A stretch of 64,000 nt of DNA from Candidatus Planktophila sp. (GTDB lineage Bacteria; Actinomycetota; Actinomycetes; Nanopelagicales; Nanopelagicaceae), in the NCBI GenBank assembly GCA_030681675.1, contig JAUXRP010000002.1, positions 5,178 to 69,177 of the forward strand. The letters run 5' to 3'. The notes beneath the pieces are model-generated. The model made no database searches and had not been told where the DNA came from. It worked only from the letters and a program-made list of their open reading frames with translations. Of the stretch, positions 37,040 through 38,761 are shown piece by piece (the first letter of the stretch is position 1; each line of letters starts with the position of its first letter). The position numbers and the translations under genes are program-made.

Positions 37040-37555
37040 ATGGATGGCTTAGGGATTCCAGATAGTTGGGCACGTTTATGGGCTCCACATCGACTTGATT
37101 ATCTACGTGGTGAAAACCGTCCGCTAGAAGGAAATGGAATTGAATGTCCATTCTGTCGAATTCCAACTTTAAGCAATGAAGATGGTCTAATTGTTCATCG
37201 CGGCGAAACCGCTTACGTGGTCATGAATTTGTATCCATATAACCCGGGCCATCTTTTAATTTGTGCTTATCGACATGTCAGCGATTTAACCGATTTAACT
37301 GACATTGAGCGCGATGAGATTTCAGCGCTCACTGCGCATGCAATGAGGACGGTGCGCATCGTGTCTTCGCCAGCAGGTTTTAATCTTGGCATGAACCAAG
37401 GGGCGATTTCTGGAGCAGGAGTGGCCGATCATATTCATCAGCATCTTGTTCCACGGTGGAGTGGTGATGCCAACTTCATGCCGATCATCGGGCATACGAA
37501 AGTTATCCCGCAGCTTTTAAGCCTTACTCGCGATGAAATCGCAGCCGCGTGGTGA
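37040..37555 (+). CDS. HIT family protein (Ap4A phosphorylase Rv2613c-like)
   Basis: CPFC, NLYPYNPGH, FNLGMNQG, HIHQHLVPRW. Confidence 0.9.
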   Translation: MDGLGIPDSWARLWAPHRLDYLRGENRPLEGNGIECPFCRIPTLSNEDGLIVHRGETAYVVMNLYPYNPGHLLICAYRHVSDLTDLTDIERDEISALTAHAMRTVRIVSSPAGFNLGMNQGAISGAGVADHIHQHLVPRWSGDANFMPIIGHTKVIPQLLSLTRDEIAAAW

Positions 37556-38140
37556 TTACACGTTGAGTTGTTGCACGTAACTTTTTACAATATCTACACC
37601 GAGGGTTTTTTCAATCCAGATTGGTATTGCTGGAAATAAAACCCCGGCAGAAAATGCACCTTCACCCAATGAGGACGTGAGTTCGAGGTACTCATCGCGA
37701 AACTCCTGCACTAATAGTTCATGTTCAGTTTCGCAGGGGCGTTGCGTTGGCGGTACGGTGCTGTAGTCGAGTATCTGCATTGATTCAAGCGAGATAAGTG
37801 CGCAGGGCAATCCAGCCTCATCATGCAAAACTAAATATGGAGTAGCCATAAGATCAAAGACGCGGTTCGCAACCATGACGGCATCCTCGAAATCAGCCTC
37901 CTGGTTTTCTAGATGTGTCACAACAAGAATCCGTGGAGTCTGAAACTCATCATATGCCGACCAGATATCAATCGTTGCCTGGTCAATTCCGGTGGATGGG
38001 TTAACGGCAAAGATTGCACAGTCAATATGCGCCTCAGCGACGTGGGCTACATGTGCGCCCAGTGCTGCGGCAACAGCTGCTGGCTCGGCGCTCTCATGGC
38101 CATAAACTGCGATGGACAGGGATGATGCAGTGGAATTCAC
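37556..38140 (-). CDS. Miniaturised EF-G2-like G-domain protein with degenerate GTPase motifs
   Basis: DCAIFAVNPSTGIDQATIDIW...PRILVVTHLENQEADFED resembles the post-G3/G4 part of actinobacterial EF-G2. It occupies the usual EF-G2 slot between HIT and pgsA. No GKT and no domains II-V. Confidence 0.65.
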   Translation of the reverse strand: MNSTASSLSIAVYGHESAEPAAVAAALGAHVAHVAEAHIDCAIFAVNPSTGIDQATIDIWSAYDEFQTPRILVVTHLENQEADFEDAVMVANRVFDLMATPYLVLHDEAGLPCALISLESMQILDYSTVPPTQRPCETEHELLVQEFRDEYLELTSSLGEGAFSAGVLFPAIPIWIEKTLGVDIVKSYVQQLNV

Positions 38141-38146
38141 CTGCTC

Positions 38147-38156
38147 AGCCTACGAT
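38147..38156. promoter_or_regulatory. Overlapping bidirectional -10 elements (TAGGCT on minus, TACGAT on plus)
   Basis: In AGCCTACGAT, the minus hexamer is 6 nt before GTG 38140 and the plus hexamer is 5 or 8 nt before GTG 38162 / ATG 38165. Confidence 0.55.
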
Positions 38157-38161
38157 GGGAG

Positions 38162-38761
38162 GTGATGATAAGTCGCATTTTCAAACCGGCGGTTACGAGA
38201 TTCATAACACCCGTAGCTAAGTTCGCCCTTCGTATCGGCATCACGCCTAACGGGGCCACCTTTATTGGTGCGCTCGGTGTAGTTGCATCCTCGCTCTATT
38301 TCTACCCGAGGGGGGATTTTTTTCTCGGAACGGCCATCATCTTAATCTTTGCCCTTAGCGATCTTTTCGATGGAACCATGGCGAGAATTTCCCAGATAGG
38401 TGCCAGTCGTTGGGGCGCTTTTTTAGATTCAACGATAGATCGAATAACAGACTCTGCAATCTTGATTGGTTTAGCAATCTATTTAATCGATAGAGATGAT
38501 CGCTTGACCGGTGTAGTCATAGTTGCCTTAGTGTCAGGTTTGCTGGTGCCATATATTCGAGCTAAAGCTGAGATTTTTTCAATTCCATGTTCAGGTGGAA
38601 TCGCCGAACGCACTGAGCGATTAGCAATTTCAATGCTAGCTATCGCCTTTGATGGTCTTGGCGTTCCATTTGTTTTAGCCGGGGGATTGTGGTTGTTAGC
38701 GATCCTGGGATCAGTAACAGTGCTACAACGAATGCTCATCGTTAAAAGAGCGCTTGCCTAA
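38162..38761 (+). CDS. pgsA: Phosphatidylinositol phosphate synthase (CDP-alcohol phosphotransferase)
   Basis: DLFDGTMAR...GAFLDSTIDRITD, YIRAKAE, ERTERL. Confidence 0.93.
   Translation: MMISRIFKPAVTRFITPVAKFALRIGITPNGATFIGALGVVASSLYFYPRGDFFLGTAIILIFALSDLFDGTMARISQIGASRWGAFLDSTIDRITDSAILIGLAIYLIDRDDRLTGVVIVALVSGLLVPYIRAKAEIFSIPCSGGIAERTERLAISMLAIAFDGLGVPFVLAGGLWLLAILGSVTVLQRMLIVKRALA

Follow-up and report, generated by a model that had tools for sequence, protein, structure and literature searches.

Between the HIT-family gene and the pgsA gene of a Candidatus Planktophila genome, in a window of 64,000 nucleotides (the whole stretch of DNA analysed here), lies a short frame that runs antisense to the row thrS, HIT, pgsA, HtrB-type acyltransferase and pimA-like glycosyltransferase. 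The question raised by this locus is whether the frame is the debris of a translation factor or a gene that has been kept, and, if it has been kept, what its product could still do. An earlier note, made from the DNA letters, had described an intact frame of 194 codons at this place without giving its strand; the frame is present, on the minus strand (Table 1), and we refer to it as the mini gene and to its product as the mini protein. Most database copies of the protein are unnamed or called 'hypothetical protein' (NCBI), some JGI labels read 'translation elongation factor EF-G', and the literature searched held no paper describing it.

Table 1. Position of the mini gene, its parts and its neighbours in the window.
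Feature	Position	Strand	Basis or remark
Mini gene, coding sequence, 194 aa	37556..38140	minus	start GTG 38138-38140, stop TAA 37556-37558; NF009377 match, AlphaFold2 model, dN/dS
Core homologous to EF-G2 102-285 (mini residues 32-190), beta4 to the end of the G domain, G' included	37571..38047	minus	hhalign
G' subdomain, four-stranded sheet and acidic helix	37661..37843	minus	family-wide invariant motifs TPYLVLH and EH..LV.EFR.EYLE
G4 remnant THLE, residues 75-78	37907..37918	minus	motif of the parent EF-G2, T[HK][LV]D
Putative dead Walker A slot, residues 13-21, YGHESAEPA, after beta1	38078..38104	minus	aligned by eye, with weak profile matches, to EF-G2 GHSSAGKT
HIT-family gene	37040..37555	plus	convergent neighbour of the mini gene
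pgsA-like CDP-alcohol phosphatidyltransferase	38162..38761	plus	divergent neighbour; 21-nt intergenic region common to the mini gene and pgsA
Candidate -10 box TAGGCT (TANNNT type), 6 nt before GTG	38147..38152	minus	conserved motif
Candidate pgsA -10 box TACGAT	38151..38156	plus	8 nt before ATG 38165, 5 nt before GTG 38162
Conserved 12-mer CCATCGTAGGCT (minus strand), holding both divergent -10 boxes	38147..38158		conserved across genera

The similarity of the mini protein to EF-G is far beyond chance. The NCBIfam model NF009377, 'elongation factor G-like protein EF-G2', matches residues 39-153 of the mini protein over profile positions 102-216 of 700 (E=2.4e-16), with a score of 59.3 bits against a curated cut-off of 890 bits, which leaves the match below the threshold of the family model. 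The Pfam model GTP_EFTU reaches 14.5 bits, under its threshold, and Pfam alone would miss the gene. A profile of 67 family sequences finds as its best match in the PDB the EF-G2 of M. smegmatis (9k0z_7, E=1.7e-15), with the Thermus EF-G-2 (1wdt, E=5e-10) as the second solved relative, and hhalign pairs the mini protein with five full-length EF-G2 sequences at 99.7% probability (E=2.9e-25), with one deletion of 24 residues inside the G' subdomain. From the family alignment, AlphaFold2 predicts a single compact domain (pLDDT 93.5, pTM 0.89) whose core has four strands only (residues 10-14, 41-47, 70-74 and 169-173), the remainder being a G' sheet of four strands (102-135), a long helix (138-158) and a helix at the C-terminus. 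When this model is compared with the PDB by Foldseek, the top 50 matches are all EF-G, EF-G2 or RF3 (E down to 6.6e-11, TMq 0.60-0.81), and the predicted structure thus has the alpha/beta fold of a G domain with the G' insertion that is specific to EF-G. The layout of an EF-G G domain, which the earlier note had read from the letters, is borne out by the NF009377, hhalign, PDB profile and Foldseek matches alike; the same note had named a lack of structural matches to translational GTPases as the outcome that would speak against it, and the opposite is what we find.

The location of the gene points to its origin. Five genomes, each of a different other family of the class, carry the segment that matches the mini protein inside an EF-G2 of 712-731 aa with intact GxxxxGKT and DTPG motifs, and this full-length gene adjoins pgsA, the acyltransferase and pimA, in antisense, at all five loci, with thrS and HIT on its other side at four of them. 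A full-length EF-G2 at this locus in other actinobacteria had been part of the earlier reading, and these loci agree with it. At these five loci (L021:5770-7908 and four others), the G4 motif is THLD, TKLD or TKVD in all but one protein, so that Thr replaces the canonical Asn. The genome of the window holds no second EF-G2 and only the canonical fusA, beside tuf. The shared position and the lack of another EF-G2 in the genome indicate that the mini gene is what remains of EF-G2, a positional ortholog still standing at the ancestral place. A split gene with domains II-V encoded elsewhere was considered and rejected; matches of the domain III-V type occur in this genome only in fusA and in two GTPase frames of 629 and 647 aa. 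Two other families of the class are without EF-G2, and there thrS, (HIT) and pgsA are contiguous (L138 = G033:C75; L139 = G036:C32); G033, a genome of 1.4 Mb, is also without HIT between thrS and pgsA.

The mini gene is packed tightly between its neighbours. Towards HIT the two genes end stop to stop (37553-37558), the TGA of HIT and the complement of the mini gene's TAA standing side by side without an intervening base, and a scan for terminators of the E. coli type found no terminator-like hairpin at this junction. Since the stops abut without spacer or hairpin, the two transcripts must overlap or terminate within the opposite gene. Towards pgsA, the divergent start codons are 21 nt apart. 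The earlier note had given the mini gene a promoter of its own, with TAGGCT 6 nt before the GTG, and across genera this candidate box does keep a fixed distance from the start codon: the 11-mer CATCGTAGGCT is found in 116 of 130 related loci, and at every locus listed it stands directly upstream of the mini gene with an ATG or GTG 6-8 nt past TAGGCT. The candidate box of pgsA, TACGAT, overlaps TAGGCT back to back by 2 nt, and in the relatives the ATG of pgsA follows it after 7-8 nt. In actinobacteria the rule for a -10 box is a TANNNT whose centre lies 7-12 bp before the start site, and leaderless mRNAs occur often in this group (PMC3898074). The TAGGCT box probably drives transcription of the mini gene as a leaderless mRNA, and pgsA probably starts at ATG 38165, not at GTG 38162, and is leaderless too. 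A promoter scan of the E. coli type flags neither of the two boxes. We did not adopt the 11-mer as a general signature of leaderless promoters: of its four further copies in the genome, two of them exact and two differing at one position, none marks a clear gene start. Overlapping -10 boxes, back to back, for two leaderless genes would be a compact example of promoter packing in streamlined genomes.

One reading of this arrangement is that the remnant serves the lipid pathway together with its phosphatidylinositol/PIM neighbours (pgsA, acyltransferase, pimA), for instance as a subunit that regulates or scaffolds, and does not act on the ribosome. Although the back-to-back promoter layout with pgsA is conserved family-wide, and EF-G2 adjoins pgsA in all five of the loci from other families, we regard such a role as improbable. 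There is no known link of EF-G paralogs to lipid synthesis, no EF-G2 accompanies the pgsA row in the genomes G033 and G036, and the proteins of the mini family are very acidic (pI ~4.2, net charge ~-19), the mini protein being soluble and without a membrane segment. The mycobacterial arrangement also counts against it; there the row thrS-HIT-pgsA1-acyltransferase-pimA is presumably contiguous, with fusA2 elsewhere.

What has been lost from the protein is as telling as what has been kept. At the Walker A slot, where the full-length EF-G2 proteins of other families at this locus have G[HP][ST][SG]AGKT, the mini protein reads GHESAEPA; the absence of GKT was noticed earlier and extends to the whole family, as none of 67 relatives carries GK[ST] and 35 of them have a deletion of three residues at the slot. 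Switch I, beta2, beta3 and G3/switch II are missing, the alignment resuming at EF-G2 residue 102, past DTPG, and no DxxG stands at the expected place. This, together with the four core strands of the model, agrees with the earlier description of a switch/G3 region that is largely deleted. The same description had THLE in place of NKxD. THLE does occupy the G4 slot, but it does not derive directly from NKxD: the parent EF-G2 already had THLD, TKLD or TKVD, so that THLE differs from its parent by the change of D to E only. Among the 67 relatives, the position of the G4 Asp is E in 30, T in 9, S in 9, Q in 8 and A in 7, and the G5 slot (SAx in EF-G) is an invariant FPAIP in the mini family. Domains II-V are absent, as had been claimed, and Pfam EFG_III, EFG_IV and EFG_C have no match in the mini protein, which stops where the G domain would pass into domain II. 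In many relatives the last residues are LPS.S and correspond to the PSP linker that joins these two domains in EF-G, and the C-terminal cut therefore falls at a domain boundary.

The N-terminal 31 residues give no statistically significant alignment with EF-G2. A profile of them matches four of five EF-G2 sequences at residues 21-39, with scores of only 2-5 bits, and an intermediate form of 323-349 aa (described below) and the multiple alignment place them on beta1 and the P-loop; with this support we infer that they are the remnant of beta1, the P-loop and alpha1. A plain MAFFT alignment with EF-G2 and fusA puts the N-terminus on beta3/DTPG instead, a placement that was not adopted because the intermediate form and the weak profile matches favour beta1.

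With neither the Walker A Lys/Thr, nor the ligands of Mg and the gamma-phosphate, nor the base-specifying Asp, canonical GTP binding would be excluded by established G-protein chemistry. A nucleotide might nonetheless be bound and hydrolysed through a non-canonical site, which would make the mini protein a minimal enzyme. Non-canonical P-loops do occur in other NTPases, and in the mini family G14 at the end of beta1 and DFDD are invariant while T75 of the G4 slot is mostly kept. We hold this to be very improbable in view of the complete lack of Lys and of Ser/Thr at the Walker A positions in all 67 relatives, where the loop also varies in length; of the outright deletion of the elements that bind Mg and the gamma-phosphate (the switch I Thr/Ser and DxxG); of the replacement of the base-specifying Asp by E, T, S, Q or A; and of the relaxed constraint on the Walker A segment, which is the least constrained part of the protein.

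The path from EF-G2 to the mini protein can be followed in part among its relatives. One basal genus of the Nanopelagicaceae has, at the same locus and in the same orientation, the intermediate of 323-349 aa (L026:4381-5430, L027:3981-5012; P0403-P0419), which has a dead Walker A of the sequence GRSANSAI, a beta3-like strand and an undeleted G'. The intermediate also carries a C-terminal beta-alpha-beta-beta-alpha-beta domain. Its AlphaFold2 model is of low confidence (pLDDT 62.5), and the Foldseek alignments of this model span 600-650 EF-G columns, covering the G domain and the C-terminal domain V, which is suggestive of an origin of the extra domain from EF-G domain V. In this genus a gene for a multi-pass membrane protein of 195-207 aa lies between the remnant and pgsA (L026:3831-4418, L027:3395-4018); the C-terminus of the inserted protein is SHOCT-like and ends in ...GLITQ.DYDRKKEE.LRRL. 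In metagenomic EF-G2-like proteins of 320-390 aa (P0176, P0209, P0226 and P0206; P0209 clusters with P0391, MDD2858259.1) another residue stands in place of the Walker A Lys, as in GSAGSGRSS, GAPGAGTST and GATGGATTT. These proteins keep only a portion of domain II, or else domain V (P0226 matches Pfam EFG_C), and one of them is titled 'GTP-binding protein [Candidatus Nanopelagicales bacterium]'. Such proteins may represent additional steps in the reduction of EF-G2, or parallel cases of it. The series suggests that the loss of the GTP site preceded or accompanied the loss of domains.

The mini gene has been retained throughout its family. It is present in 119 of 121 genomes that are at least 90% complete, in all 12 genera, at identities to the query down to ~27-34%. 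Three genomes without a match (two of the set of 121 and one other) were re-examined and all are also without pgsA, which marks these as gaps in the assemblies. All 100 Planktophila-type loci of a stricter set have an intact frame with no in-frame stop, and the chosen coding length is ~189-204 aa in nearly all genera. A frame break is seen only in G018, an assembly that is 41% complete, and the lone TAA of G050 and of G130 appears to sit at the very end of the match, as judged from the lengths of match and frame.

The gene is also under strong constraint. Over one shared set of 66 genome pairs whose dS is unsaturated, the median NG86 dN/dS is 0.066 for the mini gene, 0.031 for HIT and 0.052 for pgsA. 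By segment, omega is ~0.38 for residues 1-38, 0.05 for alpha4 (83-99), 0.08-0.10 for G' and 0.12 for the remaining segments, so that the N-terminal segment with its dead P-loop is the least constrained stretch of the protein. The invariant residues include W60, DFDD (83-86), TPYLVLH (100-106), EH..LV.EFR.EYLE (139-153), FPAIP (169-173) and G181. The earlier note had held that the gene is not debris, and its retention and a dN/dS near those of the neighbouring housekeeping genes uphold this; the variable truncation and the dN/dS near 1 that it had associated with decay are not what the family displays. That the frame is a decaying pseudogene, or is open by chance or through an unrelated constraint (as a spacer, an antisense RNA or a carrier of the promoter), would suit what is left of a larger gene in a streamlined genome, with its sub-threshold Pfam score and its mostly unnamed database copies, but this has next to no probability beside a frame that stays intact across 12 genera at such low identity, a dN/dS this low with synonymous sites near saturation, a well-packed predicted domain, 21 invariant residues across 17 divergent sequences, and an opposite strand with no competing ORF that has homologs.

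We consider it likely that the mini gene is a functional and selected single-domain descendant of EF-G2, and that its product is a pseudo-GTPase binding module. By the sequence-level definition of the term (fold kept, motifs lost, purifying selection), the mini protein is a pseudo-GTPase. The stand-alone pseudo-GTPase left by streamlining, which the earlier note had proposed, holds up in these three respects, and the new role that it had added, as an adaptor of the ribosome or of the lipid pathway, stays conjectural. In the model that we propose, EF-G2 in an ancestor of the Nanopelagicaceae would have lost the Walker A Lys/Thr, switch I, beta2, beta3, G3/switch II, the G4 Asp and domains II-V, and what remained would be a four-stranded Rossmann-like core (beta1, beta4, beta5 and beta6 with helices) plus G'. 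The mini protein would act as a very acidic binding module that is independent of nucleotide, and its binding surfaces would be the most constrained ones, namely helix alpha4 with DFDD, the G' sheet and the acidic helix.

As the acidic G' region of EF-G faces the L7/L12 stalk, the likeliest target of such a module would be the ribosomal stalk region or another translation component. We name this partner tentatively; the stalk hypothesis is weakened by the deletion of 24 residues in G', which may have removed part of the surface that contacts L7/L12. With domains II-V gone, the mini protein could neither mimic tRNA nor reach the decoding/A site. In a more specific form of the model, which we think rather unlikely as it stands, the mini protein would be a nucleotide-independent regulator of the ribosomal GTPase-associated centre that docks on the C-terminal domains of bL12 or on the stalk base; in oligotrophic cells that grow slowly, a free G/G' module docked there would throttle how EF-Tu, EF-G and IF2 are recruited. 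Were this form of regulation true, G' would be the part that carries the long-unknown selected function of EF-G2.

The interest of the mini family extends to its parent. What EF-G2, the widespread EFG II subfamily, does is still under debate, and the mini family is a natural deletion experiment in the highly abundant freshwater lineage acI/Nanopelagicaceae, in which the GTP site and domains II-V have been discarded while the rest of the G domain with G' has been kept at a dN/dS of ~0.07. The maintenance of this part under selection without a GTP site points to a function in G/G' that is independent of GTP. Moreover, other families of the class do without EF-G2 altogether, and the keeping of a piece thus argues for a function of that piece. 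The mini protein is small and predicted to fold well, and offers a direct test object for the function of G/G'. It would also be a pseudo-GTPase that is bacterial, stands alone and descends from a translation factor, and of such a protein we found no description in the literature searched.

Among known systems, the actinobacterial EF-G2 (NF009377; M. smegmatis, PDB 9K0Z/9K10) is the best sequence and profile match of the mini protein. The two have the same position and orientation, between HIT and pgsA, and have in common a G4 of the T[HK][LV]D type, ADFD(E/D), and DYS and PEH in G'. They differ in that the mini protein has 194 aa against 712-731 aa, a G' that is 24 residues shorter and no domains II-V, and, unlike the factor in 9K0Z, it cannot occupy the ribosomal A site. 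The mycobacterial EF-G2 itself is reported to show no ribosome-dependent GTPase activity and to be a stress factor which binds ribosomes and so traps them (preprint 10.64898/2026.05.25.727771). The EF-G-2 of Thermus thermophilus (PDB 1WDT/2DY1) matches the model of the mini protein with a Foldseek TMq of 0.70 and an rmsd of 2.7. The EFG II subfamily has a fast-evolving and indel-rich G', a relaxed G domain and a conserved acidic G' region, and all of its members keep G1, G3, G4 and G5 and five domains (Margus et al. 2011, PMC3150367). In contrast, the mini protein keeps none of the G motifs.

The 323-349-aa intermediate shares with the mini protein the dead Walker A, the motifs LVLH..G.PAALIDL and DFDE, and the locus. 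The intermediate differs in its beta3-like strand, full G', C-terminal domain and the membrane-protein gene before pgsA. Outside the bacteria, CENP-M is reportedly a pseudo-GTPase of eukaryotes. The eukaryotic p190RhoGAP contains two pseudo-GTPase domains, pG1 and pG2, that are without nucleotide-binding motifs and are retained as structural or binding modules (PMC5593906). Like pG1 and pG2, the mini protein keeps a G-protein fold after the loss of the motifs that bind nucleotide; unlike the eukaryotic pseudo-GTPases, which come from small Ras-like GTPases, it is bacterial, stands alone, derives from a translational GTPase and has lost two strands of the core.
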